Assembly: GCA_050084515.1 (NCBI GenBank)
Contig: CM114271.1
Span: 28,954,001-29,018,000, forward strand
Length of the DNA stretch: 64,000 nt
Direction of reading: 5' to 3'
DNA from: Blasia pusilla
Lineage: Eukaryota
Within the stretch, counting starts at the first letter, position 1; the number at the start of each line of letters is the position of its first letter. The notes beneath the pieces are model-generated. The model ran no database searches, was not told the DNA's origin, and saw only the letters and a program-made list of their open reading frames with translations. Below, in pieces: positions 1 to 64,000 of this stretch. Both the position numbers and the translations under genes were made by a program.

Positions 1-499
1 AATAATAGATAATCATAATCAAAATCATAATATACAAGAGTATTCGTTGAATAAAAAGATATATTCTTCAAGATTACAAAATTGTGGGTATCACAAGATC
101 AACGTGTCACTCGACAACTCAATGCGGATCCCTAGACCCTTCAGCGTACCCAAATTGTGCATTCTAAATGAAAAAAAACTCTTACAACTCCTAAGGAACT
201 TGTGTATCCGGCGCGGATGTCGGTGGTTGCTCTGGTGCAACCCCGTCTCAGAAAATAGAACTCTCATCTCCACGTGCAGTACCCGGAACCACGCTCGATG
301 TTGTGGCTATCCTCTCCTGGCGTACCTGCAAAACATCCCAAGAAGTCCAAGGGTGTCTCTCCCGATCACCCTTGGTGTGTTGATCTCCTCAGATCTTGCC
401 CCCAACCACTGCCTCAACCATCTCGGTAGGCATGGGGCTCACCAACGCAATATTTGTGATCTGTCGCATCCTCAAACGACGTTGCTCAGCTACTCCTAA

Positions 500-1920: not shown

Positions 1921-2319
1921 TCTCGGATGCACCACCCAATCGGGGTGGTGTCCAAAGGGGTCATAGCAGCACTCCTGCCTACTTGGGGTTCCTATGACCT
2001 GTCACACTCTGGTGCAAACGTCTCGCTCCATGCGGTCTGCACATGCTCAATGGCTAAGCGTCGGAGCTCCTCCTTCGAGCCCTAAAGTGGCATGTCTCCT
2101 CCACTGACTGATGCGGCTACCATGACATTCCTCTGCATAGAAATGTCAAGAACGGGAATATCTTCTGCATAGACATATCCCTCAATCAAATCACTAGGCC
2201 AAGTGATGGCATTGCTAAATGCTGCTAAGGTCGCCATCTCTCATGGCCGTCGCTCGATCATTACACATGTGAATCAAACGGGTAATGAGCTAAGGCGCCC
2301 ATCACCTGACTGCCAACGT

Positions 2320-3334
2320 GAGATGTTTTTAGGACCGCTGAGAATATTGAGCGCAAGATGGTGGAGGAGAGCGTAGCCACCATGGGTTCTGGCGAGAGCG
2401 CCACGATTATCGCACCACTGTGCAAAGAACGTGACTTTGAGATAGGTCGACTGTAGCACCACGAGCTCAGGGAGGAGACTGGGAGGCCATTCCAAAGAGA
2501 CCTGCACCTTCATATGCGGCTCAACAGCTGCCGCCTATGATTACTTGTTGGCCATATGGTGGAGCCCATCATCAGCGCGATTGCATTCGTTAGGGTCATG
2601 GACATGTGCCTCAGCATGGCGGAGGAGATGGTGTTGTACTAGGAGGTTATCAATGTGACTATTGTCAGAGGTATGGTCACACACACGCCAAGTGTTTCAG
2701 TTTACACCCTGAGTTACGTCCGGACTGAGGGCTAGAGAGGGCACTAGAGCGAATGGCCGGTCTGGGTGGGCTAGAGATCGTGCACCAGGTGGTCCCGTTG
2801 GGGGACGAGGACCTAGAATTGCCTGACAGGGTGGTGGAGCTGCCAATGGAGGAGGTAGGGTCCCACCACCTAGATGCGTCGAGGGAGATACCGGGCGTGG
2901 GGCTGGGATGGCTACTCAGATACAACAGCTATAGAGTAGATTTCCGCTATGGCATTGAGGTTACCCGATGCCGGATCCGTGGCATCGACATCATATGGAT
3001 TAGCGAGAGATATGGAGGATCCAGGTTGGATGTGCAGGGTTGCCCAAATGGAGGCCGCCTCAGTTGTGATGCGTGGAGCAGCCGAAGAGTTGGATCCACA
3101 GTGAGGGAAAGCCAGGAAAAAGACCAGGCTTCTTCAGTCTTTCACGTTGTCCGAGGCAATGAGGACTCCATTGATGGGTCTTGATCACAGTTCCTAGAGA
3201 GTTGATGATGTTGTTGGTGTGCAGGCACGGAGGGCAATGGGAGAAGCGAGTGCGATGACTCATATTGTTGATGCTCAAGGGGGCAAACCCGATGGGGTTT
3301 GCCTTGGATTACTGGGAGGAGTTAGCGTCCTACA
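2320..3334 (+). other. Inverted internal segment of copy 1 (gag C-terminus with zinc knuckles; protease core deleted)
   Basis: Matches ~45935-46907 then ~47550-47597 on the + strand, whereas both flanks match the element on the - strand. Confidence 0.85.
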
Positions 3335-4644
3335 TAGGGGAGGTGTTCATAAGAAGCACCCTTCCCGCACCCGTGTCCGCAGGGTCCGGTCCAGCATCAC
3401 ATACCATGACTGAATAGCCTAAGCCTCTCTCATCCCCTTAGTGACGTTGATCAACCGGCGCAAGTGAGTGTAAGCCTCACGCAAACTCACCCAGGCGCCT
3501 GTGGAAGTCGTGGATGCTCCACAACTTCTCCGTCCGTACCCCCAGGTAGCTCGCCCTCAACTCAGCGAAGAACTCAACGACGGGGTTGAACCTGGGACGA
3601 ACCCGACTAGATGGTGCAACTGCTCCAATGCGAGTGACTTATCCTAAACCATCACTAGTGGAAGAGGAAGTAGCCTCTCTTGACTCCTCCTCCTTATCTG
3701 GGAACGGCTCCGTCCATGACACATAGTGTGGGTCATAGTATAGTCGCCATGCCTCAATCTCCTAGACATATGTGTGGGAGAGCTCATGGTAATCGTCCAT
3801 GGGCGCCCCCTCTAATTGCTGGAACATACCATTCCATGATATAAACAGGTTGAACTCTCTAGAGTTCCTAGTCCGCTGTGAGTCACACCAACTCCTAAAC
3901 TCCACAATGACTCTATAGTGCCTACAACACCCGAAAACCTACGGGATCCTCGACCCCAGTAGTCCATCTCATACGCCCAACTGGTAGGACCACTCAATGT
4001 GTACGGTGGATCACTAACACACTCCTCTACATGCTCCCCCTTGTCTGAAGACAACACCGAAGGAAATCGAGGTGGTCTCTCACGTGGAGACCCTCGAAAC
4101 CTCGCACCACTCCGGGTAAACCCTCCAGAGCTACTCTCACGTCCACTACCTCGCCTCTCAAAATTCGGAAAGGACGTCGTGATGGCCCTCGTGCCCCTCG
4201 TGACCCTCTCACACTATCACTCCCAATTTTGCGAGTAATCCCTCAATCACTCAAACTAAACATGTGGCACTCAATCTACACTCTCTCCCTGAGACGTGTG
4301 TTGTGGGACAACAAGCAACGTGGTGCGGCAAATCAACTGATCTATCGTCTCATCGACAAACCATCCTCACGAAGGCGCTCTACTAGATCTCACCGATTGA
4401 ACCTAAAAGACGTGACAAGGACAACACGTTCCTCTTTTCCATGCTATGTAGGTCTTGTACTCTACGGGAAGTTTAAATGGACGCTTACGAAGGAATTTTG
4501 TTCTGGTAGAATCGATGCTTGAGCTATCAGAATTTGCATTTGGAAGTTGGAATTTTCCTGGTCAAGATTCCCAATCTTGACCAAACACTTGGTTGGTCCC
4601 AAATTTTTCCATGAGCGCAGAACTAGAAGAAGACGTAGCAGCTG

Positions 4645-30636: not shown

Positions 30637-31515
30637 GTGATATGGATCACAAGAAGACGACTAATGATGGGGTCACATGAATATTTAACATTTTTGCTCT
30701 TAGGATCCTAGAGATGTATGTCATGGTAGGTAGGGATAGATGGCTATTTGGAATTATAGGGATCTAACCACCAACTATGGAAGCAATTGGAGATGTTTCG
30801 GTATACCATCATTTGTGTGTTTAGATGTCATGAGTGAGTATGGTAACTTGAATTTATGTGTTTGGTGATGGCGATGAAGTTGTATAGCGATAAGTGTATG
30901 CACAACAATTTTCACGTCCTTTATAGGAAATTTACGAGTATTTGTAGGTTGTCTTCAAGATGGTTGGATGATGGTCTATTGAGGACTAGGGTACCTTCAG
31001 AGAATAGGTTTCCCTTTCTTTTGGCTCCTTTGGAACCATATTGAAAATTTTGTTATTTCGAGTAAGTTTCTATTGTAAGTATCTTTCACTTTTTCATTTC
31101 AAGAAGTGGCTCTTGATCCACTATTGCAAGTTAAGAACCAAGGAGGTGACTTTTGTGCACATGTCATCAAGATCCAAGGAGAGAGCTTTGGGGAGAGGGA
31201 AGGGGTATACCCAATGAGAGCTCATTCCCTCTCTGTTGAAACTCCTTTTATAAGGCAACGGTCCGCCAACGGAGCTATAATCTTCCTTGACTTGTGAGTA
31301 ACACTAGCCTTTCACTAGGAGAGTGGGTTTGGTTTGAGATGAAAGAAACATGGTGTGTGCGTGAGAGATTCGATGTGACTTGATTTATTGGAGATATTTC
31401 ACTACATCATCCTCTATGAGTTTAGATTCCATGAGTGAATATGATATCTTGTTTTTATATGTTTATGTTTGGTAATAGCAATGTATGGAGTGTAACGATG
31501 TGTATATGCATGATG
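30637..31515 (+). mobile_element. Isolated, diverged 3' end (3' UTR-B-A-B) of the DNMT-Gypsy family
   Basis: Collinear with ~52226-53130: B 30786-30907, spacer AT, A 30910-31387, B 31387-31515. Confidence 0.8.
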
Positions 31516-42995: not shown

Positions 42996-43509
42996 TGTCA
43001 CTTCTTTTAGAATAGATCGGCGAGATCTAGTAGAGAGCCTTCGGAGATACTGGAGGGCAGCCTCAGGAGGTTGAGGATGACCTGTTGAGGCCACGGGTAA
43101 TCTGAAAGAGAGCAGATTTCCCCTTCGTTTCAGCTCATTTGGAGCCATATAGAGAAACTTACTATTTTGGGTAAGTTTCCATTTAGAGTATCATTGACTT
43201 TCAACTTTGGGAAGTGGCCCTTGACCCGTTACAACAGGTCAATAGCCAAAGAGATGACCTACGAGCATAGGTTACCGAGGAGAGAGCTTGGGAGAGGGAA
43301 GGGGGTATACCTCCAAGAGAGAGAGTTTGAGAGCTCATTATCTCTTTGTTGAACCTCTAGGCATGAGGCGGCGGAGCTATGGTCCTCCTTGCCTTGTGTG
43401 TATAACCCAAGCCTCTCAGGAGAGTGGGTTTGGTTTGACATGAGAAAGAGTGCACACCTTTGAGAGTTATGGTGTGAGATGGTGTAGAGAGAGATTGGAT
43501 CTTACTTTA
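42996..43509 (+). repeat. Terminal repeat A1
   Basis: Direct repeat of 52505-53003 and 56664-57150; similarity to A2 stops at GGATCTTACTTTA. Confidence 0.88.
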
Positions 43510-45058
43510 CAAAGAGAGAATGAGAGAATGAGAGAGCTTCATGGGGGAGCTCGCTGGTCACTCGCTATTTTTGCAGGTTGGGGACCATGTTCCCCATTTA
43601 GCGGCTCATGGGAGTGCTCACCGGAGCAAGGGTTTCTTTGATTGTTCTTTGCATTTGCCAATTTTTCGTATGGAAGAGTGGCGCGCGGAAGCGCTACCCA
43701 ATTTTTTTATAGGGATTGAGTATGGGGGCGGGTTGCCCCATGCTGGTGCTCTTGGAAACACCATGTAGCTTGCTGATTTGTATTTTTATAGGTTTTACAT
43801 TTTGGTTGGGAGAAATCAACACGGAAGCGCTGCCAAATTTAATATAAGAGAAAGAGACATTGGGCTTTACAGCAGTCCCTGTTTGTTTTTACTGGAATGT
43901 CCGATTCTAAATATTCTTTGACGCTGTTGTAGATCGTGAAGCTTTGCACATTGTGCAATAAAAAATGTGTAATTTGGAGTTGGGAGCAAAAAGTTATGGT
44001 CAATCTTGCAAAACTCCCATCGCTAGGCGATTTTTAGGGTTAAATTGATCAAACCCTAAACCAGTCGTCGCTCTCATAATCACCGTCAACAGTCCACCAT
44101 CTTTGGTCAACCTTCACCATCAACGGTCAACCGTCACTGTCAATGGTCCACCGTCCTTTGTCCACCCTTTGGTCGCCATTGCCGCCATTACGGAGTGGAG
44201 GGTCTTCCACAACGTTCGTTGATTCTCTAACTTGCGTCGCCACCACGTACTTTGTTTTGGCCACCACCGTCATCGCAATTTCGTCATCAACCACTGATGG
44301 TAGATGACCTCCAGTTATGGTGTTTGAGTTTTGATTTCATGCTGCTATGTTGTGATCGGTAGCCGCTCGATGACAATCGAGTACCGTGCCGTGACGCCCG
44401 TAGTTGCAACGCGCCGCCGATTGCTGCGTCGTGCCGCTCGTGGCCGCGCCACACCGTCTAGATCGCGGAACCGCTCCTTCACTAAGGAGCACAGCGTGTG
44501 AATTTCTGATTGAGGAGGATATACCGCCGAGTGCCGCATCCCATTCCCGAGTGTCGTGCTGTTTGTAGCCGTTCCGTGCCGCTAGTGTCGCACCGGACCG
44601 CTCGACCCGCACCGCACATCGAGGAGGTTGAGCAACGTCAGTACGAGAGGAGTACAACTTGCTGATTGGAGGAGTTGTCTTCACGACTGAGTGGGGGTTG
44701 AGATTTGCAGTTGTTGAGGAGCGACATCGACATGTGTTCAGGTTACCCATTCTGGTCCTTTACCCTGCACGTGTGAGGGATTCTGGGATTTGGGTAATTT
44801 ATTTGGCGATATTGGGTTGTGTGGATGCTGAGAGCATCATTCATGTCTATGGTTTAGGGGACATAGACCTGTGTGGCATGTCTGGAGTTGAGGGTAGGTT
44901 GTCGATGAGATGATAGCGTGGTCAATTTGCCGCACCAGGCCGTGTGTTGCCGCACGTTACACGTCTAAGGGAGGGAGAGTGTAGATCGAGTGTCGCATGT
45001 TTGGGATGAGTGATTGAGGGGTTAATCATGAGGTTGAGAGTGATCCGGTGGAAGGGGC

Positions 45059-46600
45059 ATGAGGGTCATCACGGGGTCCGTTTGGGACTTTGAGAGGTGA
45101 GGTGGTAAACCCGAGAGTAGCTCTAGAAGTTTTACGTAGAGTGGCACGAGGTTCCGAGGGTCTCCACGTGAGGGACCACCTCAGCCTCCTTCTGTGTCAT
45201 CGTCATACAAGGGGGAGGGTGTAGAGGAGTTTGTGAGCACATTGCCACATATTGTGAGTGGTCCTACCAGTTGGGCGTACGAGATGGACGACCGAGGTAG
45301 AGGACCGCGTAGGTTTTCACGTGCAGTAGGCACGATTGAGTTGCACGATCTCATAGCAAAGTTTAGGAGTTGGTGCGACTCTCAATGGGCCATGAACTCT
45401 AGAGAGTTCAACCTATTTACAGCATGGAACGGTATGTTCCAGCATTTAGAGGGGGCGCCCATGAACGATTACCATGAGTTCTCCCACAGATATACCCACG
45501 AGATTGAGCCATGGCGACTCTACTATGACCCACACTATGTGTCATGGACGGAGCCGTTCCCAGATGAGGAGGAGGATTCAAGAGAGGCTACTTCCTCTTC
45601 CACTAGTATTGTTTTAGGAGGGTCACTCGCAATGGAGCAGTTGCACCATCTAGTCGAGTTCGTCCCAGGTTCAACCCCGTGGTTGAGTTCTTCGTTGAGT
45701 TGAGGGCCTAGCTAGCAAGGGGTACGGATGAAGAAGTTGCGGAGCATCCATGACTTCTAGAGGCGCCCGGGTGAGAGTTTATGTGAGGCTTATACGCGCT
45801 TGTGTCGGTTGATCAATGTCACTCAGGGGCTGACGGAGGCTCAGGCTATCCAATCATGGTGCGCGATGTTGGACCGGACCTTGCGAACATGGGTGCGGGA
45901 GGGGATGCTTCTTATGAACACCTCCCCTACGTTGAGAGATGTTTTTAGGACCGCTGAGAACCTTGAGCGCAACATGGCGGAGGAGAGCGTAGCCACCATG
46001 GGTTCTAGGCCAGAGCAGTCACGATTGGTTGCACCACTTGTACAGCAACGTGGACTCCAAGATAGGTCGACTGCGGCACCACGAGCTCAGGGAGGATATC
46101 GGGAGGCCGTGCCACAAAGACCTGCGCCTTCATATGCGGCTCAGCAGCAGCCGCCTTCTATTACTTGTTGGTCATGTGGTGGAGCCCATCATCAGCGCGA
46201 TTGCACTCGTCAAGGTCATGGACGTGTGCCTCAGCATGGAGGAGGAGATGGTGCTCCACAAGGAGGTTATCAGTATGACTATTGTCACAGGTATGGTCAT
46301 ACACGCGCCACGTGTTTCAGTTTACATCCTGAGTAATGTCCGGACCGATGGCTAAAGAGGGCACCAGAGCGAGTAGCCGGTCCGAGTGGGCCTAGAGATC
46401 CTGCACCAAGTGGTTCCGTTGGGGGACGAGGAGCTGGAGTTGCCCGACATGGTGGTGGAGCTGCCCGTGGAGGAAGTAGAGTACCACCACCTAGATGCAC
46501 TGAGGGAGACGTCGGACGGGAGGCTGGGATGGCTGCTCAGATACACCAGCTACAGGTGTAGATTGCAGATTAGGCATTGAGGTTACCCGATGCCGGATCC
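45059..46600 (+). pseudogene. Gag with two zinc knuckles (copy 2)
   Basis: ORFs 45194-45703 and 45800-46336 are in the same frame; knuckles CWSCGGAHHQRDC and (Y/C)DYCHRYGHTRATC. Start position approximate. Confidence 0.8.
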
Positions 46601-47199
46601 GTGGCATCAACATCATATGGAGCAGCCAGAGATATGGAGGATCCTGGTTGGATGTACGCGGTTGCCCAGATGGAGGCCGCCGTAGTTGTGACGCGTGGAG
46701 CAGCCGTTGAGTTGGATCCACAGCGAGGGGAAGCTAGAAAACATACTATGCTTCCTCAGTCTTTCACGTTGTCCGAAGTGATGAGGACCCCATCAATGGG
46801 TCCTCATCAAAGTTCCTTGAGAGTTGGTGATGTTGTTGGTGTGCAGGCACGGAGGGCGATGGCAGAAGTGAGTGCAACAACACCTATTGCTGATGCTCAG
46901 GAGGGGCATGTGTCGAGCACATTGTTGGGAGCAGCCACCGTTGTGTACCGCACTCCTTTATTTTCTGCTTTTGATGTTATGACGTTGGGGGGTACGCCCG
47001 CCGAGGCTTTTCGGCTGGCCGCTTAACTATGTGAGCGCGGAGCTGGAGTTCCTGCATCACGTTCAGAGGTGATTGCAGAAGACGTGATGGACTTGCCCTT
47101 GGAGCGGATGCTCGGGCCGTCCACGTCAGATTCATGGCAAGCAGCGGTTGCTAGGATGGCGGAGATGCCCGCTAGACCCGCGATAGAGCGTGCCATGGC

Positions 47200-47580
47200 T
47201 TCTCCTAGTGTTGTGTTGCTGGATAACCGAGGAGATGTTTTCCAGTTGGTGAGTCCCGGAGGTAGAGCTTTTAGTCCGCAGCACGTCTTGTTGGATTCAG
47301 GATCGCAACCCTTGATGTTGGGGAAAGCGTCATTCAGAGGATTGGGCTTGACGAGAGCCGATGTGGAGCGTTGTCCATTCCGGATACAGACATCCTTGGG
47401 TGGAGCGAGTACCACATAGTATATCACCCGACAGGAGGTCGTGGTGAGGATTCGCCCGAGACATCCTACACATGAGTCCGTGGCGCAAGCCAAGGCGATA
47501 GTGACTAATGCAGAGTCCTACGACGTCTTGGTTGGTGGAGCAGTGTTATACCCGATGGGGTTTTCCCTGGATTACTGAGA
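47200..47580 (+). pseudogene. Retroviral-type aspartic protease (copy 2)
   Basis: VLLDSGSQ active site (~47285-47310) and downstream YDVLVG motif, in the same frame as gag. Confidence 0.8.
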
Positions 47581-47988
47581 GGAGTCAGGGTCATACAGAC
47601 CACGATGGCAGTCAGGTGATGGGCGCCTTAGCCCATTATCCGTTCGATTCACAAGTACAGTGATCGAGCGACGGTCAGGAGAGGTAGCGACCTTAGCAAC
47701 ATTTAGTAGTGCCATCACTTGGCCTAGTGATTTGATTGAGGGACATGTCCATGCAGAGGATACTCCCGTTCCTGACATTTCTATGGAGAGGAGTGTTATG
47801 GTAGCCGCATCATTCCGTGGAGGAGCTCGACTAAGGAGCTTCGAAGATTGGCAGATGAGCACGTGTAGACCACGTGGAGCGAGGCGTTTGCACCGGAGCG
47901 TGACGGGTCTGAGGAACCCAAGGTAGCAGGGAATGCTACAATGACACCCTTGGATACCACACCCATTGTGTGGTGTATCCCGGAGGAG

Positions 47989-48930
47989 GGTATTCGAGTG
48001 TTAGATCTCTTTGGAGGGATTAGCACCGGGTTAGCTGTTGTTTTGCAGGCATGAGTGCGAGTGCAGCAGTACCTGTATGTGGAGAGTGATGATGTTGCAA
48101 GGCGCGTCTCACTACGACATATGGCGCAGTTACGCCTACGTTTTCCGACTTATTGTCTGCGTCCGCGGTATAGGGGTACCAGAGTTCCCTATTGACAAAT
48201 ATTTCATTGTTGGGGGCGTAGGACTTAGAGCGGGTAGGGACCATCGATTTGGTCATTGTCGGGTGGCCATGTCAAGGCCAATTAGGTGCTAGACAAGACA
48301 GCGGGTTGGCGGACACTCGGTCTAGGTTATTTTGGGAGATGTTGAGGGTCTTACGGCAGTTGCAGGAGCACCAATCTCGTTCTCCTCCCTACATTCTGGA
48401 GAATATGCCGATCTTAGGAGACTCCAGGTCACGGGTGGTGACAAGTGCTCATCAGGTGTGTGCCTGGATCCGCCCAGAAGTGTTCTTGGATGCGGCGAGT
48501 GTAGGTTCTAGAGCCCATCGCCCGCGTCTATGGTGGACCAACTTGGTGCCCCATGCGGTGTTACAAAGGGCGTATGCGAGAGTGGAGCGCCCCTCCCATT
48601 TGTTAGTGGATTCCATTCTGGATCCAGGTCGTCGATCATAGGTAGTGAGGTACGATGATCGACCACCGTTGAATGTGGTCAATAGGGTAGGCAGGCCGCG
48701 GGCAGCCTTGCCCACGTTTGTGAGTTTTCTCGCTTCCTATGCATACAAGGAGGTCGGTCCTGGCTTGGTTTGGGATGACTAGGTTCAGCGGTTGGTGGAG
48801 CCCAACGCCGACGAGAGAGAGCGAGCAATGGGATTTCCCACAAGAGTGACGACAGTACCGTCAGTGTCTGAGGCAACACGATGCCATGTCTTGGGTCACG
48901 CGATGGACCTGAACTGCTTGACATGGATCC
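47989..48930 (+). pseudogene. DNMT3-like C5 cytosine methyltransferase domain (copy 2)
   Basis: Motifs I GIRVLDLFGGISTG, II YLYVE, IV DLVIVGWPCQG (catalytic PC intact), VI YILENM, VII FLDAASVG, VIII RAHRPRLWWTNL, IX ERERAMGFP, X RCHVLGH. Contains stops and frameshifts. Confidence 0.93.
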
Positions 48931-49253
48931 TCAACTTGGGAGTGGCTGAGCAGCGTCGGATGAGATTGCGACATATCACAGCGGTTGCGTGGGTGAGCCC
49001 CATGCCTACCAAGACGATGGAGGCAGTGGCTGGGGGCGAGACCCAAGGAGATGTACACACCAAGGGAGATCGAGAGAGACACCCTTGGACTTCTTGGGAT
49101 GTTTTGCAGGTATGCCAGGAGATGATAGCCACATCATCGAGCGTTGTTCAGGACATTGCATGTAGAGGAGATCAGAGTTTGCAATTGGTTGCACGAGAGC
49201 GGCCGAGTGTTGTTGTTCGAGACAGGGTTGCACCATAGCAACCACCGATACCC

Positions 49254-50640
49254 ATGCCGGAGAGTCCTACCGTAGTCACGACGGAGATTTGGAAGCCAGA
49301 TATGGGCCCTAAGTTGACAGGAGGAGAGCGGCGTCGCATAACTCAGTTCCTCAAGAGTTATAGGAGTTGCTTTGCGTTTAGCATGGAGGATTTGGGTACG
49401 TTGAAGGGACGGGGGATCCGCATTGAGTTGTCCAATGATACGCCGATCTTCCGATGACCCTAGAGGTACAATGATATGGAGAGGGCTCTGATTCAGAGTA
49501 GGAGCCAGGACTTGGTCGGAGCAAGACTAGTAGAAATGTCGCATGGGGAGTATGCATCTGCCACTATCATGCCCGCCAAGGAGGATGTGCATGGCAATTG
49601 GATGGATAGGCGGATGTGTGGGGATTACCGACCTATCAATCGACAGACAAAGTCCGAAAGGTATGCCATGCACACCCCCGAGGAGATCTTTGATGCGATT
49701 GATCACGCAAAGGTCTTCAGTTCATTGGATTTGTGAGCCGGATACCATCAACTGCCTATCAGATTGGAGGACAGGCAAAAGATGGCATTTTGGGGCATCG
49801 ATCCCCACGGGAAGGATTGTTTGTACTAGTGGCGGTTCATGCCATTTGGGTTAAAGAACGCCCCGGCTGAGTTTCAAAGGGTCATGGATAGGATCTTGGC
49901 TGGTCTGGATTTTGCTAGGTGTTATATTGATGACATCATAGTCTTTAGCGCCACGGTTGAGGAGCATGAGCGACATCTAGAGGAGGTGTTTCGACGATTG
50001 CAATTACATGGGTTGAAGCTACATCCAGGAAAATGCAAGTTCTTCTACGACCAGATTGAGTACTTGGGTCATACGATATACCTTGGGGGCCTTGGTGTTC
50101 AGCAGACAAAGGTAGAAGCTATCTCACGCATTCCACGCCCTACAGATTTGAGCCGTGTTCGCGCATTCATGGGATTGGCGAACTTCTATCGGCGGTACGT
50201 CAAGGGATTCAGTTTGATTGCAAAGCCCCTGACCTTGCTGACAAAGGTGGATCATGAGTGGCACTGGGGGGATGAGGAAGAGCGAGCATTTCAGTTGCTC
50301 AAGGACAGGGTGACGTCCGCGCCCATCTTGAGGAGACTGATGAGGGGGTATCCTTTCTAGTTGCACACAGATTGGAGCATGTTGGGGCTTGGAGCGGTGC
50401 TCACCCAGCATGATGATGAGGGTAGAGAGTTTGTGGTGGCTTACGCTAGCCCCTAGAACAATGCTGCAGAGGCGAAGTACACCTCGTATGAGGGTGAGTG
50501 TTTGGCTGTAGTGTAGGCTATCGCGTATCTCATGTGTTACTTATTCGGAAACCCCTTTACCATCATCACTGATCATCAACCACTTAAGTGGTTGATGGAT
50601 TCCGACAAGCTTACAAGGAAGCTTGCGAGATGGGCTCTGT
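49254..50640 (+). pseudogene. Reverse transcriptase and RNase H (Gypsy-type, copy 2)
   Basis: RMCGDYRPIN, DL*AGYHQ, MPFGLKNAPAEFQ, CYIDDIIVFS, YLGH, LHTDWS, ITDHQPL; same frame as the methyltransferase C-terminus. Confidence 0.95.
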
Positions 50641-50899
50641 TTAGGCTATGGAGAGCCAGAGTATGGAGACTTCGATGGCGAGGTCTAGTGGAGAGTCCTT
50701 GGATCCCGAGGCCAGTGAGGAGACGAAAGGTGGCTGAGATATTCATGATGATGGAGTAGTCTTGGAGTACCTTTGGACTAGCAACGTTGCGAGCACCGTG
50801 GGTGCTAGAGAGCGGGATCGGATCCTACAGCGGGCCAGACGATTCCGTTGGGAGGGGACACGTGTTTTGAGGGTTTGGGAGGATGGCAGAGTACGCGTA

Positions 50900-52040
50900 G
50901 TGCCGCATCCTTTGTAGAGAGCACGACTAGTGCAGCATGCCCACGAGGAGTTGGGTCACTTTGGGGTGAAGCGGACGTACAGCTTGCTCCAGATTCAGTA
51001 TTGGTGGCGAGGCATGTAGTAACTATCCGCAAGTTTCAGCAGTTTGTTACTAGGTGCATAGTGTATGATCAAGTCCGAGCATCATTCAATGCTCCAACTC
51101 CACAGTTGCATCCATTATCGATCATGAGCTTAGGGTATAGATGGAGTTTGGATTTTGCAGGACCTTTGCCTTTGACGGAGCGTCACAGTCGTTATGTGTT
51201 GGTGATGGTCTGGCACTTCTCGAAGTGGATCGAGTTGGTTGCATTGCCTGACAAAGCGAGTGAGGAAGTAGCTTATGCCTTCCTTGACAGATTGCTGAGT
51301 CATTATGGCACACCATCTGAGGTGTTGACAGACCAGGGTACCGAGTTTGGCGGTGAGTTCCAGGCCGTGTGTGATCAGGCGCTGATTGACCACCGCACAA
51401 CTTCGCGAGATGATCCTAAGGCGGATGGATTAGCGGAGAGAGTTGTGCAAATGATGAAGAGGGGTTTACACAAGTATGGCTTGCAAAGAGATCACCTAGG
51501 AGATTGGGACCTCCAATTGCCGTGGTTGGCGATGGGATACAGATTCAGCATGCAGGCATCCTTAGCGTGTTTTTCACCGTACTTGCTACTTTATGGCCGA
51601 GAGCGAGATTTACCTGCGGCCATTCGTCGAGATGTTGGTGAGGTGCTGGACCTTGATGACCTAGATATATGGATGCGAGCATGTTCTCAGAGGGCTGAGT
51701 TATTTCGGAGAGTGATGCCCATGGCGTTCGAGAACTTGGCAATTGCGCAGCACCGGGATACGTTGCGGTATGCGACTATTCGGGGTGGTGGTTATCGATC
51801 AACTATCCAGAGGTTTGATCAGGGAGACTATGTCTACTTGCAGCTGATGGCACTGACGACGTTGGATGTGACTACAGGGTGCACTATCCTGAGAGTGCGT
51901 GACGTTTTGCCATCCGGTGTTCTCTTGCTGGAGGGACACGATGGTATGGTATGGAAGGACCACGTGCGTAATTGTGCGCCATGTCACGTTCCTAACATTG
52001 ATGGTACATTAGATCCGAGCTCAGCACTAGTTCTTGTAGG
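50900..52040 (+). pseudogene. DDE integrase (copy 2)
   Basis: HEELGHFG zinc-binding region; core WSLDFAGP, LTDQGTEF, DGLAER. Confidence 0.93.
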
Positions 52041-52047
52041 CTTGCGT

Positions 52048-52188
52048 TGTATGTTGTGCAATTTTGCTCGTGGTGCGGCCACGATACTAGTCTGTAATAG
52101 ATGTTCGAGGGGTTGGCATATGGCTTGTTTGATGCCACCTCTCACTAGGGTTCCTCGGGGATGATGGATGTTTCCCAGATGTACATAG
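52048..52188 (+). pseudogene. C-terminal PHD finger on integrase (copy 2, degenerate)
   Basis: CMLC...VCNRC...WHMAC...LTRVPRG*WMFPRC. Confidence 0.85.
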
Positions 52189-52374
52189 AGGAGATACTAG
52201 GTAGGTTTTGATTCCGACTTTTTCTGTGATATGGATGACAGGAAGGCGACTAACGATGGGGCCATATGAGCACCCGGCCTTCTTGCTCTTAGCGTCCTCG
52301 AGATGTATGTCGTGGTAGGTAGGGATAGATGGCTATCTGGAGTTAGAGGGACTTAACCACCAGCTAGGGGGGCG

Positions 52375-52502
52375 ATTGGAGATATTTTGGTACTTCTCGC
52401 CTCTATGTATGGATGCCATGAGTTAGCATGGGATTGTGTGTGTTTGTGTGTGTGTTTGATGACAACAATGTATGTTGTGTAGCGATGTGTATGCGCACGA
52501 TA
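52375..52502 (+). repeat. Terminal repeat B1 (128 bp)
   Basis: Near-identical direct repeat of 53003-53130; preceded by the purine run AGGGGGG. Confidence 0.9.
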
Positions 52503-52504
52503 GT

Positions 52505-53003
52505 TGTCATGACAGTTAGGATAGATCGGTGGGATCTAGCAAAGCATTTGCACGAGTAGTGGGCCCACGAGGTTGAGGATGACCAGTTGAAGCCTCAGGA
52601 AACCTGAGAGTGTAGGTTTCCCCTTCGTTTCGGCTCATTTGGAGCCATATAGAGAAACTTACTATTTTGGTAAGTTTCCATATTGGGGATAGTTGACTTT
52701 CTACTTTGGGAAGTGGCCCTTGACCCACTACAACAGATCAAGAGCCAAGGAGGTGACCTACGACCATAGGTTGAGAGGGTTTGGAAGAGGGAAGGGAGTA
52801 TACCTCCAAGAGAGAGAGCTTGAGAGCTCATTCTCTCTATATTGAACCTCTTGGCATAAGGCGGCGGAGCTATGGTCCCTTGCCTTGTAAGTGTAACCCA
52901 AGCCTCTTATTAGGAGAGTGGGTTTTGTTTGACATGAGAGAGGGTGCACACCTTTGAGAGCTATGGTGTGAGATGGTATAGAGAAAGATTGGATCTTACT
53001 TTA
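52505..53003 (+). repeat. Terminal repeat A2
   Basis: Starts TGTCA 2 bp after the end of B1; direct repeat of A1. Confidence 0.88.
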
Positions 53004-53130
53004 TTGGAGATATTTTGATACTTCTCGCCTCTATGTATGGATGTCATGAGTTAGCATGGGATCGTGTGTGTTTGTGTGTGTGTTCGATGACAATGATGTA
53101 TGTTGTGTAGCGATGTGTATGCGCACGACA
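53003..53130 (+). repeat. Terminal repeat B2 (128 bp), element 3' end
   Basis: Repeat of B1, ending GCGCACGACA. Confidence 0.9.
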
Positions 53131-53279
53131 GAGACGCTAAATTAGAATTTTTAAAAATTTGAAGATCGCCCTAGATTACCCAACACTCTTGTCCTTTTTA
53201 ATTGAGTTCAATATTTCAAGTTTTAATTGGGTGTGTTTCGTATTGTTTCTAATTTGAGTGTTGGATTTTGAAAACTACT

Positions 53280-56300: not shown

Positions 56301-58063
56301 CAATATCTCTTATTCCCCTAGATCTAAATATGATTGTGTATGAAGGCTTTCAAAGTTACCTTGGGGCATATTTGGAAAATCAAATAGTCTCTTCCCTTGG
56401 TCTTGCCAATAATAATGGACTTCCAACAACGCAGTATTATTGATGGTATCATCAACAGGAAAATCATGTATTCTAGTTTTGTGCAATGGAAGAGTACTAA
56501 ATAATCGTGATTATCGAGTTTGATGCTTAATAGCACATCCTATAAGGAAAGAAGAAATAATGTAAGAAGTGATGTACTACGTGTTGTCCTTCATATAAGG
56601 GATCCTCAATGAGTGGAACTAAACAATTGACTCCATAGTATAGTAGGATGAGTTCATGTGTAATGTCACGTCTTTTAGGATAGATCAGTGAGATCTAGTA
56701 GAGCGCCTTCATGAGTAGTGGAGGACACGCTCCGTAGGTCGAGGATGACCAGCTGAGGCCTCGGGAAACCTGAGAGAGCAGATTTCCCCTTCGTTTCCGC
56801 TCATTTGGAGCCATATTGAGGAACTTACTCTTTTAGGTAAGTACCATTTTGAGTATATAATCGACTTTCTATTTTTGGTAAGTGGCCCTTGATCTCCTAC
56901 ATCAGGTCAAGAGCCAAGGAGGTGACTTGGGAGAATAGGTTACCATGGAGAGGTCTTGGGAGAGGGGAGGGATATATATCCCAAGGAGAGAGAGCTTGAG
57001 AGCTCATTCTCTCTTTGTTGAACCTCTTGGCATGAGGCAGCGGAGCTATGGTCCCTTGCCTTGTGAGTGTAACCCAAGCCTCTCATTAGGAGAGTGGGTT
57101 TGGTTTGACATGAGAGAGAGTGCACACCTTTGAGAGATATGGTGTAAGATCATCAACTTGTGATGGCATATAACCTCCTGTTATAGTGTTTGAGTTTTGA
57201 TTTCATGCTGCTATGTTGTGATTGGTAGCCGCTCAACGACGATCGGGTACCGTGCCGTGACGCCCGTAACTGCAACACGCCGCTGATTGTCGCGCTGTGC
57301 CGCTCGTGGCCGCACCGCACCATCTCAATCGCAGAGCTGCTCAGGCATTGTGGAGGAGAGTGTGGGTTTATAGTTGATTGAGGAGGGTATGACGCCGAGT
57401 GCCGCATCCCATCATCGAGGGCCGTGTCGTTCGTAGCCGTTTCGTGCCGCCTGCAACGCCGCACCGTTCTGCTGGAACCGCACCGTCTATCGAGGAATTT
57501 TGAGCAACAACAGTACGGGAAGAGTATGACTTGCTGATTGGAGGAGTTGTCTCCACCACCGAGTTGGGGTCGAGATTTGCAGTTGCTGAGGAGCAACATT
57601 GACATGTGTTCAGGTTACCCATTCTGGTCCTTTACCCTGCACGTGTGAGGAATTCTGGGATTTGGGTAGTTTATTTGGGGATACTGGGTGTGTGGATGCT
57701 GAGAGCATCATTTATGTTTGTGGTTTAGGGGACATAGACCTATGTGGGATGTCTGGAGTTGAGGGTAGGTTATCGATGAAATGATAGCCTGGTCGATTTG
57801 CCCCACCACGCCGCTTATTGCCGCACGTTACATGTCTTGGGGAGGGAGAGTATAGATCGAGTGCCGCATGTTTGGGATGAGTGATTGAGGGATTACTCGC
57901 AAGGCAAGAGTGATCGGGTGAGAAGGGCACGAGGGTCATCACGGCGTCCGTTCGGGACTTTGAGAGGCAAGGTGGTGAACCTGAGAGTAGCTCTAGAGGT
58001 TTTACACGGAGTGGCATGAGGTTCTGAGGGTCTTCACTTCAGGGACCACCTCGACCTCCTTCT

Positions 58064-59370
58064 GTGTCATCGTCAGACGAGGGAGAGGGTGTAGAGGAGT
58101 TTGTGAGCACATCGCCACACATTGTGAGTGGTCCTACCAATTGGGCGTACAAGATGGACGACCGGAGTAGAAGACCGCGTAGGTTTTCAGGTGCAGTAGG
58201 TACGATTGAGTTGCACGATTTCATAGTAGAGTTTAGGAGTAGGTGCGACTCCCAACGGGCCAGGAACTCTAGAGAGTTCAACCCGTTTATAGCATGGAAC
58301 GGTATGTTCCAGCATTTAGAGGGGGCACCCATGGACGATTACCATGAGTTCTCCCACAGATATGCCCAGGAGATTGAGGCATGGCGACTCTACTATCTGT
58401 CATAGACGGAGCCGTTCCCAGATGAGGAGGAGGAGTCAGGAGAGGCTACTTCCTCTTCCACTAGTGATGTTTTAGGAGGGGTCACTCGCACTGGAGAAGT
58501 TGCACCGTCTAGTCGGGTTCGTCCCAGGTTCAACCCCGTGGTTGAGTTCTTTGCTGAGTTGAGGGCGAGCTACCAGGGGGTACGGACGGAAAAGTTGTGG
58601 AGCATCCACAACTTCCAGAGGCGCCCGGGTGAGAGTTTACGTGAGGCTTACACTCGCTTGCGCCGGTTGATCAACGTCACTCAGGGGTGACAGAGGCTCA
58701 GGCTATCCAGTCATGGGACGCGATGGTGGACCAGACCCTGCGGCCACGAGTGCGGGAGGGGGTTCTTCTTATGAACACCTCCCCTACGTTGAGAGATGTT
58801 TTTAGGACGATCGAGAACATTGAGTATAATATGGCGGAGGAGAGCGTAGCCACCATGGGTTCTAGGCGAGAGCAGTCGCGATTGGCTGCACCACATGTGC
58901 AGCAACGTGGACTCCAAGATAGGTCAATTGTGGCACCACGAGCTCAGGGAGGATACCGGGAGCCCGTGGCATAGAGACCTGCGCCTTCATATGCGGCTCA
59001 ACAGTAGCCCCCTACTATTACTTGTTGGTCATGTGGTGGAGCCCATCATCAGCGCCATTGCACTCGTCAGGGTCATGGACGTGTGCCTCAGCATGGAGGA
59101 GGAGATGGTGCTCCACCAGGAGGTTATTAGTGTGACTATTGTCAGAGGTATGGTCATACACGCGCCAGGTGTTTCAGTTTACATCCTGAGTTACGTCCGG
59201 ACCAAGGGCCAGAGAGGGCACCAAAGCGAGTAGCCGGTCCGGGTGGGCCTAGAGATCGTGCACCAGGTGGTCCCGTTGGGGGACGAGGAGTTGGAGTTGG
59301 AGTTGCCCGACAGGGTGGTGGAGCTACCCGTGGAGGAGGTAGAGTACCACCACCTAGACGAGCCAAGGGA
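58064..59370 (+). pseudogene. Gag with two zinc knuckles (copy 3)
   Basis: ORFs 58064-58405 and 58687-58974 are homologous to copy 2 gag; CWSCGGAHHQRHC and CDYCQRYGHTRARC. Confidence 0.8.
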
Positions 59371-59587
59371 GACGAGTGTTATGGTAGCCGCATCATTCCG
59401 TGGAGGAGAGGTGCCGTTGTGGGGCTCGACTGAGGAGCTTCGACGATTGGGAGATGAGCACGTGTAGACCGTGTGGAGCGAGGCGTTTGCACCGGAGCGT
59501 GACGGGTCTGAGGAACATGAGGTAGCAGGGAGTGCTACGATGACACCCTTGGATACCACATCCATTGTGTGGTGTACCCGGGAGGAG

Positions 59588-60530
59588 GGTATTCGAGTGT
59601 TAGATCTCTTTGGAGGGATTAGCACCGGGTTAGCTGCTGTTTTGCAGGCATGAGTGGGAGTACAACAGTACCTGTATGTGGAGTGTGATGATGTTGCAAG
59701 GCGCGTCTCACTACGACATGTGGCGCAGTTACGCCTACGTTTTCCCGACTTATTGTCTGCGTCCGTAGTACAGGGGTACCAGAGTTCCCTACCGAGGGAT
59801 ATTTCGTTGTTGGGGGCGCAGGACTTAGAGCGGGTAGGGACCATTGATTTGGTCATTTATGGTTGGCCATATCAGGGCCAATCGAGTGCTGGACGAGGCA
59901 GCGGGTTGGCTGACACTCGGTCCACATTGTTTTGGGAGATGTTGAGGGTCTTACGGCAGTTGCAGGAGCACCAGTCTTGTTCTCCAGCTTACATTCTGGA
60001 GAATGTGCCGATCTTAGGAGACTCCAAGTCACGGGTGGTGACGAGTGCTCATCAAGGCACGTGCGGGATCGCCCAATGATGTTCTTGGATGCGGCGAGTG
60101 TAGGTTCTAGAGCCCATCGCCCGCGTCTATGGTGGACCAACTTGGTGCCCCATGCGGTGTTACAAAGGGCGTATGCGAGAGTGGAGCGCCCCTCCCATTT
60201 GTTAGTGGATTCCATTTTGGATCGAGGTCGTCAATCACAGGCGGTGAGGCACGATGATCGACCACCGTTGATTGTGGTCAACAAGGTAGGCAGGCCGTAG
60301 GCAGCCTTGCCCACGTTTGTGAGTTTTCCCGCTTCCTATGCATACAAGGAGGCCGGTCCTGGCTTGGTTTGGGATGACCAGGCTCAACGGTTGATGGAGC
60401 CCAACGCCGACGAGAGAGAGCGAGCGATGGGATTTCCCACAAGAGTGACGACAGTACCGTCAGTGTCTGAGGCAACACGACGCCATGTCTTGGGTCAGGT
60501 GATAGACCTGAACTCCTTGACATGGATCCT
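59588..60530 (+). pseudogene. DNMT3-like C5 cytosine methyltransferase domain (copy 3)
   Basis: GIRVLDLFGGISTG, YLYVE, DLVIYGWPYQG (catalytic Cys changed to Tyr), YILENV, FLDAASVGSRAHRPRLWWTNL, ERERAMGFP, RRHVLGQ. Confidence 0.93.
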
Positions 60531-60879
60531 CAACTTGGGAGTGGCTGAGCAGCGTCGTATGAGATCACGACAAAACACAACGGTTGCGTTGGTGAGCCCC
60601 ATGCCTACCGAGACGGTGGAGGCAGTGGCTGGGGGCGAGACCCAAGGAGATCTACGCACCAGGGGAGATGGGGAGAGACACCCTTGGACTTCTTGGGATG
60701 TTTTGCAGGTACGCCAGGAGATGATAGCCACAACATCGAGCGTGGTTTCGAGCACTACACGTGGAGGAGATGAGAGTTTGTAGTTGGCTGCAGGAGAGCG
60801 GCCGAGTGTTGTTGTTCGAGACGGGGTTGCACCATAGCAACCACCGATACCCGCACCGGAGAGTCCTATCGTAATCACG

Positions 60880-63800
60880 ATGGAGACTTGGGAGCCAAAT
60901 ATGGGCCCTAAGTTGATAGGAGGAGAGCGGCGCCAAATACATCAGTTCCTCAGGAGTTATAGGAGCTGTTTTGCGTTTAGCATGGAGGATTTGGGTATGC
61001 TGAAGGAACCGGGGATCCGCATTGAAATGTCGAGTGATACGCCGATCTTCCGACGACCCTACAGATACAGTGCTATGGAGAGGGCTCTGATTCAAAGTAG
61101 GAGCCAGGACTTGGTCGGAGCAAGACTAGTGAAGATGTCGCATGGGGAGTATGCATCTGCCACTGTCATGCCCGCCAAGAAGGATGTGCATGGCAATTGA
61201 CGGATAGGCGGATGTGTGGGGATTACCGACCTATCAATCGACAAACAAAGTCCGATAGGTATGCCATGCCCATCCCTGAGGAGATCTTTGATGCGATTGG
61301 TCACGCAAAGGTCTTGAGTTCATTGGATTTGTGAGCCGGATACCATCAATTGCCTATCAGATTGGAGGACAAGCAGAAGACAGCATTTTGGGGCATCGAT
61401 CCTCACGGGAAGGATTGTTTGTACGAGTGGCGGTTCTTACCATTTGGGTTAAAGAACGCCCCGACTGAGTTTCAAAAGGTCATGGATAGGATCTTGGGTG
61501 GTCTGGATTTTGCTAGGTGTTATATTGATGACATCGTAGTCTTTAGCGCCATGGTTCAGGAGCATGAGCGACATCTAGAGGAGGTGTTTTGACGATTGCA
61601 ATTACATGGGCTGAAGCTACATCCAGGCAAGTGCAAGTTCTTCTACGACCAGATTGAGTACTTGGGTCATACGATATACCTTGGGGGCCTTGGTGTTCAG
61701 CATACAAAGGTAGAGGCTATCTCACGCATTCCACGCCCTACAGATGTGAGCGGTGTTCGCACATTCATGGGATTGGTGAACTTCTATCGGCGGTACCTCA
61801 AGGGATTCAGTTCGATTGCGAAGCCCCTGACCTTGCTGACAAAGGTGGATCATGAGTGGCACTGGGGGGATGATGAAGAGCGAGCATTTCAGTAGCTCAA
61901 GGACAGGTTGACGTCCGCGCCCATCTTGGGGAGACCGATCTGGGGGCTTCCTTTCCAGTTGCACACAGATTGGAGCATGTTGGGGCTTGGATCTGTGCTC
62001 ACCCAACATGATGATGAGGGTAGAGAGTTTGTGGTGGCTTATGCTAGCCGCTCGAACAACGCTGCAGAGGCAAAGCACAGCTCGTATAAGGGTGAGTGTT
62101 TGGCTGCGATGTGGGCTGTCGCGCATTTCAGGCGTTACTTATTCGGAAACCCCTTTACCATCATCACTGATCATCAACCACTGAAGTGGTTGATGGAGTC
62201 CCACAAGCTCATAGGGAAGCTTGGGAGATGGGCTGTGTTGTTGCAGGAATATGATTTTCAGGTGGTACATAGACCTGGGACGCTCAACCAGGATGCAGAT
62301 GGGTTGAGTCGTAACCCATGCCCGAGTCAGCGAGATGCGATTGGAGCTCGATGGCATGGAGAGAGTGATGAGGAGTCAGTGCCAGGATGGCATTCGTCAG
62401 CCTATTTAGGCATGTTGGCTATGGAGAGCTAGAGTATGGAGACTTCGATGGCGAGGTCTAGTAGAGAGTCCTTGGATCCCGATGCCAGTGAGGAGACGAC
62501 AGGTGGCCGAGATATTCATGATGATGGAGTAGTCTTGGAGTACCTTCGGACTAGCAGCGTTGCGAGCACCGTGGGTGCTAGAGAGCGGGATCGGATCCTA
62601 CAGCGGGCCATACAGTTCCGTTGGGAGGGGACACATGTTTTGAGGGTTTGGGAGGATGGCAGAGTACGCGTAGTGCCACATCCTTCGTTGAGAGCACGAC
62701 TAGTGCAGCATGCCCACGAGGAGTTGGGTCACTTTGGGGTGAAGCGGACGTATAGCTTGCTCCAGATTCAGTTTTGGTGGCGAGGCATGCAGACTGACGT
62801 TCAGCAGTTTGTTTCCAAGTGCATGGTGTGTGATCGGGTCCGAGCATCGTTCAATGCTCCGACTCCACAGTTGCATCCATTACCGATCATGGGCTTAGGG
62901 TATAGATGGAGTTTGGATTTTGCAGGACCTTTGCCTTTGACGGAGTGTCACAGTCGTTATGTGTTGGTGATGGTCGAGCACTTCTCGAAGTGGATCGAGT
63001 TGGTTGCATTGCTTGACAAAGCGAGTGAGGGAGTAGCTTATGCCTTCCTTGACAGAGTGCTGAGTCATTATGGCGCACCCGTTGAGGTGTTGACAGACCT
63101 AGGTACTGAGTTTCGCGGTGAGTTCCACGCCTTGTGTGATCACGAGCTCATCGACCATCTTACGACTTCGTGAGATCATCCCGAGGCGGATGGATTAGCG
63201 GAGACAGTTGTGCAGACGGTGAAGAAGGGTTTACGCAAGTATGGCTTGCAAAGAGGTCACCTAGGAGATTGGGACCTCCAGTTGCCCTGGTTGGCGATGG
63301 GATACAGATTCAGCAGGCAGGCATCCTTAGCGTGTTTTTCACCGTACTTGCTACTTTATGGCCGAGAGCCAGATTTACCTGCGGCCATTCGTCGAGATGT
63401 TGGTGAGGTGCTGGACCTTGATGACCTAGATGTATGGGTGCGAGCATGTTCTCAAAGGGCTGAGTTATTTCGGAGAGTGATGCCCATGGCGGTCTAGAAC
63501 TTGACGATTGCGCAACATGGGGATACGTTGAGGTATGCGACTATTCGAGGTGATGGTTATCGACCAACTATCCGAAGGTTTCATCAGGGAGATTATGTCT
63601 ACTTGCAGCAAACGGCACCAACGACGTTGGATGTGACTACAGGGCGCACTATCCTGAGAGTGCATGACGTTTTGCCATCCGGTGTTCTCTTGCTGGAGGG
63701 ACGCGATGGTATGGTATGGAAGGACCATATGTGTAATTTTGCACCATGTCACCTTCTTGACATTGATGGTACAGATCCAAGCTTAGCAGTAGTTCCTGCA
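60880..63800 (+). pseudogene. RT - RNase H - integrase (copy 3)
   Basis: LPFGLKNAP, YIDD, LHTDWS, TDHQPL, NQDADGLSR, H-H-C-C (HEELGH...CMVC), WSLDFAGP, LTDLGTEF. ORFs 61350-63950 share one frame. Confidence 0.95.
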
Positions 63801-63809
63801 TGCTTGCAT

Positions 63810-63947
63810 TGTATGTTGTGTGGTTCTGCCCGTGGTGCGGCCACAATGCTAGTCTGTGATGGTTGTTCGAGAGGTTGGCATATGGCATGTCTGACGCCAC
63901 CTCTCACTAGGGTTCCTCCGGGACGATGGATGTGTCCCAGATGTACA
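63810..63947 (+). pseudogene. Complete C4-H-C3 PHD finger at the polyprotein C-terminus (copy 3)
   Basis: CMLCGSARGAATMLVCDGCSRGWHMACLTPPLTRVPPGRWMCPRC, followed by T and stop. Confidence 0.92.
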
Positions 63948-64000
63948 TAAAGGAGATACTAGGTAGGTTTTAATCCCGACTTTTTCTCTAATATGGATGA

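Follow-up and report, generated by a model that had tools for sequence, protein, structure and literature searches.

How does a retrotransposon that moves by a DDE integrase come to carry split direct repeats with the topology of tyrosine-recombinase elements? The question is raised by an element in a 64,000-nucleotide (nt) stretch of the Blasia pusilla genome (contig CM114271.1, positions 28,954,001 to 29,018,000; the whole stretch is referred to below as the window, and positions are counted from its first letter). The element has the arrangement A-body-B-A-B: a 5' repeat (A1), an internal body, and a 3' end at which a second repeat (B1), a 2-nt spacer, a further A (A2) and a further B (B2) follow one another. 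It is a Ty3/gypsy-type retrotransposon that encodes gag, protease, a Dnmt3-like methylase, reverse transcriptase (RT) and RNase H (RH), a DDE integrase (IN) and a PHD finger. Its A-body-B-A-B arrangement is the rule of a family and not a sporadic duplication. We put it at slightly better than an even chance that, in this Ty3/gypsy-Dnmt3-PHD element, reverse transcription produces a repeat whose limits do not coincide with the ends on which the integrase acts, and that the element propagates by the six-step cycle set out below.

The repeat layout that a first-pass annotation had proposed for the window copy (copy 2; Table 1) was recovered by repeat search, blastn and direct reading, and the arrangement is confirmed as real. 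B1 and B2 (52375-52503 and 53003-53131) are 95% identical over 129 nt in the repeat search and 94.6% identical in blastn. A1 and A2 share five collinear repeat blocks of 82-94% identity, and blastn aligns 43007-43509 with 52516-53003 at 84.4% over 508 columns; repeats of 129 nt at 95% and of 500 nt at 84% cannot be due to chance. Read directly, the 3' end of B1 at 52502 is ...GCGCACGATA and that of B2 at 53130 is ...GCGCACGACA. The annotation had also remarked that A1 and A2 differ in their first ~100 nt, and so they do: the first ~60 nt of A2 are aberrant, diverging both from A1 and from the A starts of two other copies in the window (copies 1 and 3). Downstream of A1, direct reading found neither B nor a primer-binding site of the TGG type expected for transfer RNA (tRNA), and the upstream flank of A1 resembles neither B nor the flanks of copies 1 and 3.

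Table 1. Features of the window copy (first) and related copies elsewhere in the window. ORF, open reading frame.
Feature	Positions	Strand	Details
A1, 5' repeat	42996..43509	+	514 nt; starts TGTCAC, integrase left end (TG)
TATA-like box and self-primer site	43306..43348	+	Box at 43306-43310; 12-nt site ATTATCTCTTTG at 43337-43348, ~31 nt below the box; predicted transcript 5' end and self-primer
Primer-binding-site-like sequence	43510..43521	+	CAAAGAGAGAAT, immediately 3' of A1; of the self-priming rather than the tRNA type
gag-like ORFs and protease ORF	45140..47419	+	Frame broken at several places; translations, motifs read directly
C5 cytosine DNA methyltransferase region	48150..49511	+	Inside pol, between protease and RT; Pfam and tblastn
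RT and start of RNase H	49534..50360	+	Pfam RVT_1 (E 1e-22), RT_RNaseH_2
DDE integrase (rve)	50809..52164	+	C-terminal PHD finger; 451 open codons; Pfam
Conserved non-coding block	52226..52374	+	Ends in polypurine tract AGGGGGGCG (52366-52374), adjoining B1
B1	52375..52502	+	Ends ...CACGATA; right end of the integrase type, in this copy with a mutation of CA to TA
Spacer	52503..52504	+	GT, 2 nt, between abutted B end and A start
A2	52505..53003	+	Starts TGTCATG
B2	53003..53130	+	Ends ...CACGACA
Truncated relative	30637..31514	+	5'-truncated, 67% identity; conserved block, B (30786-), AT spacer, A, B (31387-31514)
Copy 3	56664..64000	+	A start TGTCAC at 56664, no B upstream; internal deletions; extends past the window
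Copy 1	86..4417	-	Rearranged, truncated; A start TGTCAC at 4417, no B upstream

The family was surveyed in 80 metagenome-contig loci with an integrase alignment (L-numbers), which derive from few projects and probably from few host genomes; loci whose flanks are identical enter the counts once (L048 = L049 = L053, L075 = L079, L035 = L037). A megablast search of the window against the 80 loci gave no match of 150 nt or more, so that the loci differ from the window sequences. All 12 observed 5' ends, three in the window and nine at distinct loci, begin at A (TGTCA) with no B upstream, and A+B stands at both ends in no copy. At the 3' end two forms coexist. In subfamily 1, whose integrase is 66-73% identical to that of the window, B-nn-A-B occurs in 3 of 15 loci (L003, L009 and L011), and the remaining 12 end at the CA of the first B, each followed by a different flank. 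In subfamily 2 (integrase 41-51% identical), nine distinct copies have B-nn-A-B and nine a single B, two of the latter with a degenerate end. Plain A-body-B is thus the commoner or an equally common form (21 copies against 12 of A-body-B-A-B in these two well-sampled subfamilies), and the earlier interpretation has to be corrected in that about two thirds of the sampled copies are plain A-body-B. Complete A-body-B-A-B copies are nevertheless found in subfamilies with an integrase just 41-49% identical to that of the window.

The join between B1 and A2 is conserved as well. Besides the B-nn-A-B copies just described, junction motifs were seen in L014, L015, L023, L026, L027 and L028; in all, a strict junction motif, CA[CT][GA]ACA-nn(n)-T[GA]TCA[TC]G, is present in 19 of the 80 loci. 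The B|A spacer is a 2-nt purine-pyrimidine step (GC, AT, GT or AC) in 18 of the 19 motif loci and 3 nt long in one. Every integrated copy is bounded by the TG of A and the CA of B, which bears out the proposal that the B|A join brings two integrase ends together; the termini TGTCATG and CACGACA form an imperfect 7-nt inverted repeat. Among nine complete copies, six have a perfect 4-bp target-site duplication (TSD) and two a 3/4 match, the window copy being the ninth. Perfect duplications flank both forms: TACA in L004, ACTA in L022 and ACAA in L078, which have a single B, and ACCT in L052, TTGT in L074 and ATCA in L075, which have B-A-B and whose TSDs lie outside A1 and B2.

These observations bear on the simplest account of the locus, namely, an ordinary long terminal repeat (LTR) element whose LTR is A+B and whose B1 arose by sporadic duplication, as a nested solo LTR or through an error of assembly. 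The window taken alone, with its single undeleted copy and no TSD, would suit that account. We regard it as scarcely credible: A+B LTRs do not bound these elements, because none of the 12 5' ends carries B beside A in LTR fashion and the TSDs lie outside A1 and B2, and B-nn-A-B recurs in the 67% relative and, in other assemblies, in no fewer than 12 distinct copies. The ordinary-LTR account is refuted unless all assemblies share one artefact, and the expectation that A-body-B-A-B with TSDs outside A1 and B2 would prove to be the rule has held.

Two conserved signals indicate where the two DNA strands would be primed. Directly 5' of B1 lies a run of five to ten G residues (G5-G10) in the window, in 14 of 15 subfamily-1 loci and in 12 of the 12 B-A-B loci printed. 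In the window, this run closes a block (52226-52374) that is 72-75% identical to subfamily 1 (L002, L003, L009 and others), in which A itself is unalignable; the block is a candidate cis-acting signal. The second signal directly follows A1. In the window, positions 43510-43521 are complementary to 43337-43348, within A1, at 11 of 12 bases, and copy 3 has a perfect 12-mer at the same place in its A. At the metagenome loci, the reverse complement of the bases following A1 recurs exactly inside A over 17 nt in L013, 15 nt in L049, 12 nt in L074, 11 nt in L052 and 9 nt in L022, matches that were equalled in 0, 0, 1, 1 and 9 of 300 shuffles, respectively; L075 has 9 bp of primer-site pairing. The paired sequences differ across three deep groups, yet the pairing and its position are kept, with the self-primer site 27-33 nt below a TATA-like box.

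The retrotransposon Tf1 primes itself: the first bases of its RNA pair with a primer site adjoining U5. The pattern of complementarity described above appears to be a self-priming signature of this type, with the RNA 5' end placed by its distance from the TATA-like box; under this reading, the last 127-175 nt of A would be R-U5. The earlier suggestion that the family replicates without tRNA priming is thereby supported. RNAalifold, run on the R-U5-primer-site stretches of eight copies, did not return the terminal helix; MAFFT had put the subfamily ends out of register, and the result is neutral. If the primer site adjoins A1 and plus-strand DNA starts at B1, it follows that the LTR generated by reverse transcription would be B+A, and therefore that the integrase ends (CA-nn-TG), with their 2-nt spacer, would lie inside this LTR.

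The A2|B2 join has the structure that such an LTR would predict. Here the last base of A is joined exactly to the first base of B, as ligation of the two ends of a complementary DNA (cDNA) with B+A LTRs would give, and the join thus resembles a circle junction between two LTRs. Within subfamily 2, the join is full in L042, L073 and L074, 2 nt short in L034, L036, L052 and L057, and 5 nt short with one extra base in L049, whereas the join between the G-run and B1 is invariant in the same copies. In an 18-copy tree, B-A-B and single-B copies are interspersed, with five changes between the two forms; the median end branch is 0.059 for B-A-B and 0.056 for single-B copies (nine of each, hence low power), and the sisters L036 and L073 (support 94/98) differ in the type of A2|B2 joint. 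The evidence, which includes this low-power test, leans towards an A2|B2 joint that is re-formed in each cycle and towards single-B copies that are not merely old deletions. Larger changes at the same join were also noted: in L075/L079 (11382-11700), a large deletion has removed the R-U5 of A2 and the start of B2, and in L009 of subfamily 1 (2670-2686), there is a 20-nt insertion that partly duplicates A.

Taken literally, the first-pass annotation leads to a scheme in the manner of DIRS and PAT elements, with a DDE enzyme in place of the recombinase: the RNA would run from A1 to B2, and B1|A2 would template closure into an A-body-B-A-B circle, to be opened at B2|A1. Such a scheme would account for a repeat topology that is the same as in tyrosine-recombinase elements (figure legend in PMC5890265) and for abutted ends with a constant 2-nt spacer. 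It leaves unexplained why, in every subfamily, the polypurine tract ends exactly where B1 begins and the primer site begins exactly where A1 ends. It also predicts an inherited and uniform A2|B2 joint, whereas the joint varies within a subfamily, and it could yield single-B copies only via deletion; moreover, TSDs are present and no tyrosine recombinase was found in the 10 ORFs scanned. We consider the DIRS-like scheme quite improbable. Of the original interpretation, the rule of arrangement, the integrase ends and the non-tRNA priming are supported, but templating by B1|A2 fits worse than an LTR of B+A with internal integrase sites.

The family is transcribed and very abundant in its host. 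In two stranded RNA runs, sense-strand reads cover 42964-53155, with zero reads in the 3' flank, and transcription is strongly 3'-biased. The contigs of two DNA runs are heavily stacked over the element, with a word depth of 4e3 to 1.9e5 against about 6-100 in the flanks. A table of RNA starts and ends had no peak at the predicted start; being binned and multi-mapped, it counts neither way. A separate observation concerns a joint seen in RNA only, 49402-50474, which skips 1071 nt and removes the RT core (12 reads in X20 and 23 in X21). Its ends are GA..GC with 4 nt of shared letters, it occurs in no DNA contig, and an unusual splice or the expression of a deletion derivative could explain it.

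From the anatomy, its conservation, the TSDs and the transcription, we infer the following cycle for an element whose reverse-transcription LTR is B+A. Transcription would start at ~43337, ~30 nt below the TATA box in A1, and the RNA would take in the body, then the polypurine tract and B1, cross the B|A join and stop within A2 after its upstream part, which would make it terminally redundant (step 1). The first 11-17 nt of this RNA would fold onto the sequence adjoining A1 and prime the minus strand as in Tf1, and the G-run would prime plus-strand DNA at the first base of B1 (step 2). The predicted product is a cDNA with a B+A LTR at both ends (step 3), in which the integrase ends (...CACGACA nn TGTCATG...) lie abutted within the LTR; the TG of A and the CA of B would be joined to the target with a 4-bp duplication (step 4). 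In step 5, the least secure of the six, A-body-B would result either from a one-LTR circle, by opening of its sole B|A joint, or from internal cuts in a linear cDNA, and a two-LTR circle, with its ligated joint becoming A2|B2, would give A-body-B-A-B when opened at one B|A site. Only A-body-B-A-B would keep the promoter part of A downstream of the body (step 6), and only this form would found new copies, because A-body-B cannot, given the proposed start, supply its RNA with the upstream part of A.

More tentatively, as a possibility that we find credible though not probable, the integrase ends have moved inside the LTR such that circular cDNAs are the normal substrates, the one-LTR circle giving a sterile A-body-B and the two-LTR circle a fertile A-body-B-A-B. 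This would amount to an IS30-like junction mechanism placed on a self-primed retroelement, and to convergence with the split repeats of tyrosine-recombinase elements. Retroviral integrases have been described as able to cut LTR-LTR junctions (PMC1180852 and PMC1905944), a precedent for the cycle proposed above.

The same self-primed reverse transcription with an LTR of B+A can also be imagined without any ligated circle. The B-A-B form would then derive from linear cDNA that is multimeric or recombinant (LTR-body-LTR-LTR or a concatemer), and all single-B copies would be later deletions between B1 and B2. The polypurine tract, the primer site and the TSDs also fit this alternative; the direct repeats B1 and B2, 117-190 nt long and 300-500 nt apart, are a good substrate for deletion, and no circle was seen in the DNA or RNA reads. 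Yet single-B copies are not older by the low-power comparison of end branches, solo A-B units, which recombination of A1 with A2 would produce, are absent from the 80 loci, and the small variable losses and insertions at A2|B2 resemble the products of end joining. We judge an origin from linear cDNA unlikely, although it deserves serious attention.

Several observations weigh against the cycle based on a B+A LTR with internal integrase ends. The sample of loci is small and biased. Solo A-B units, of which there were none in this sample, would also be expected if two-LTR circles were cut twice, and deletion between B1 and B2 after insertion, which leaves the TSDs intact, could account for the single-B copies. 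The purine-pyrimidine spacers may be mere transitions from CAGCTG. The primer duplex of the window copy contains one mismatch, and its exact 8-mer, taken alone, is not significant (equalled in 80 of 300 shuffles), and L004 has a deletion at the primer site and no exact match. In the RNA data, depth was binned and reads from A1 and A2, or from B1 and B2, are interchangeable. Joints from 53130/53131 to 42996, found in four contigs of X2, in none of X1 and in 30 and 27 RNA reads, were rejected as evidence of circles or tandems: they are ambiguous with the B|A joins of typical copies, which map in this way because the start of A2 in the window copy is aberrant. Finally, the window copy itself has no clean TSD, as had been recognized at the outset (AAAG against GAGA, a 1/4 match), and its repeats are discordant, with A1/A2 at 84% and B1/B2 at 95%; at the rate of A, ~20 differences would be expected over the 129 nt of B1/B2, and 7 are observed. 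Together, the missing TSD and the discordance suggest that this copy is a recombinant of two copies, or that gene conversion has acted between the closely spaced B repeats.

The coding content identifies the element. Translation of the gag-like ORFs reveals a CCHC zinc knuckle (45761-46336), and the aspartic protease ORF (47027-47419) has an LLDSGS motif, although in the ORFs of the window copy Pfam matched neither gag nor protease. Downstream of the protease DSG motif, the Pfam domains follow in the order DNA_methylase, RVT_1, RT_RNaseH_2, rve and PHD. DNA_methylase (PF00145) was matched on the ORF at 48222-48641 with E 1.6e-06, and tblastn with the DNA methyltransferase (DNMT) part of protein P0010 covers the whole region given in Table 1; on the integrase ORF, rve scored E 7e-14 and PHD E 2e-05. 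The C-terminus of the integrase is a PHD finger (about 52050-52150) and not a chromodomain. Pfam found no Phage_integrase (tyrosine recombinase) domain in the 10 plus-strand ORFs scanned. Integrase relatives were sought among longer proteins only, and 143 of the 8000 candidates scored reached E<=1e-10; among the 120 relatives listed, 16 carry PF00145, and the named organisms among the matches listed are Klebsormidium nitens, volvocine algae and other green algae. A DNMT-homologous region is present in all sampled subfamilies with enough upstream sequence. A second architecture, RT-RH-DNMT-IN-PHD, with the methylase between RNase H and integrase, was seen in P0047 and in L059-L065 and L080, and suggests domain shuffling or a second methylase capture within the same lineage.

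Elsewhere in the window, the homology of the truncated relative ends at the exact base at which B2 ends, and copies 1 and 3, which both start at TGTCAC, have unrelated flanks. The three A starts are preceded by short motifs, among them a common 12-14-mer, but alignment revealed no true homology there, and the bin upstream of A1 (42600-42963) has a single-copy word depth; these motifs were therefore rejected as parts of the element. A tRNA scan of the window returned 0 genes. A stretch at 13373-13630, with 50% protein identity to the protease ORF of the element, probably represents a further Gypsy-like remnant with no relation to this element. Another repeat family is the probable source of two 118-nt repeats in inverted orientation (30502-30619 and 36529-36646; 73% identity) that lie just 5' of the truncated relative. 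Among the metagenome loci, no terminal repeats were detected in the distant L059, L060, L063, L065, L070-L072, L080, L051 and L055. The contig of L069 (1-9171), also a distant relative, has identical 123-nt ends, pointing to a circular or collapsed-repeat assembly, and 123-nt direct repeats at 5802 and 6052.

In LTR retrotransposons, integrase acts on the same ends that reverse transcriptase produces, and in retroviruses and ordinary LTR elements circular cDNAs are dead-end by-products. The first of these rules appears to be broken here, the two kinds of ends being offset by the length of B in every sampled subfamily of a transcribed, high-copy lineage that encodes a DNA methyltransferase of its own. 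Should the proposed model be true, circular cDNA would acquire a productive role, split direct repeats could arise without a tyrosine recombinase, and the pairing of Gypsy domains with DIRS-type repeats, given in a figure legend of 2018 (PMC5890265), would be explained. Programs that search for pairs of LTRs should miss or mis-bound such elements, which may therefore be under-annotated in streptophyte algae and early land plants.

Set beside known systems, the element shares with Ty3/gypsy elements (Metaviridae) the order protease-RT-RNase H-integrase (DDE rve), the polypurine tract and, in its family, the 4-bp TSDs, but instead of identical TG...CA LTRs it has A only at the 5' end and B-nn-A-B or B only at the 3' end. 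With Tf1/sushi and plant Tcn1 elements it would have in common a primer site that adjoins U5 and pairs with the first bases of its own RNA rather than with a tRNA; self-priming has been predicted for the plant Tcn1 and TAR lineages (PMC6317226). Those elements, however, have identical TG...CA LTRs and usually a chromodomain, whereas here the sites of integrase action would be internal to the LTR and a PHD finger forms the C-terminus. The A-body-B-A-B split direct repeats are those of DIRS, PAT and Ngaro and of TOC1, itself a non-autonomous DIRS element (as described in PMC9940879). Unlike all of these, the window element has a DDE integrase, with no tyrosine recombinase among the 10 ORFs, as well as 4-bp TSDs in its family, TG...CA ends, and a polypurine tract and primer site placed as in LTR elements. 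A terminally redundant RNA, as predicted here, would recall the Caulimoviridae, relatives of Ty3/gypsy whose transcript makes one circuit of the unit and continues beyond its own start, and which lack an integrase and are tRNA-primed; the window element differs in that its family integrates with TSDs and its primer site is not of the tRNA type. In IS3 and IS30, abutted transposon ends with a short spacer form a transient joint that is cut by a DDE transposase. By analogy with these and with retroviral two-LTR circles, the B|A join, with its two ends abutted across a 2-3 bp spacer, is a possible DDE substrate; unlike the joint of IS3/IS30, it is a permanent part of the element and of its RNA.

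The closest parallel is KnitGypsy-Dnmt3 of Klebsormidium nitens (de Mendoza et al. 2018), the only report found in a literature search for split repeats in DDE elements or for follow-up of KnitGypsy. The legend of its Fig. 4c assigns it DIRS-type repeats and Gypsy domains (PMC5890265), and the split-repeat architecture on a Gypsy-Dnmt3 element is thus already in print. Section 9 of that paper and the legend (PMC5890265) make no mention of a mechanism, a primer site, a TSD or a single-B form. A K. nitens protein, P0089, has the order DNMT-RT-RH-IN as in the window element, with an integrase that is 54% identical over 64% of the query and hence of another lineage or host. KnitGypsy-Dnmt3 and the Blasia element accordingly share both halves of the combination from which we started, a Gypsy pol with an internal Dnmt3-like C5 methylase and DIRS-like A-body-B-A-B repeats (legend in PMC5890265).

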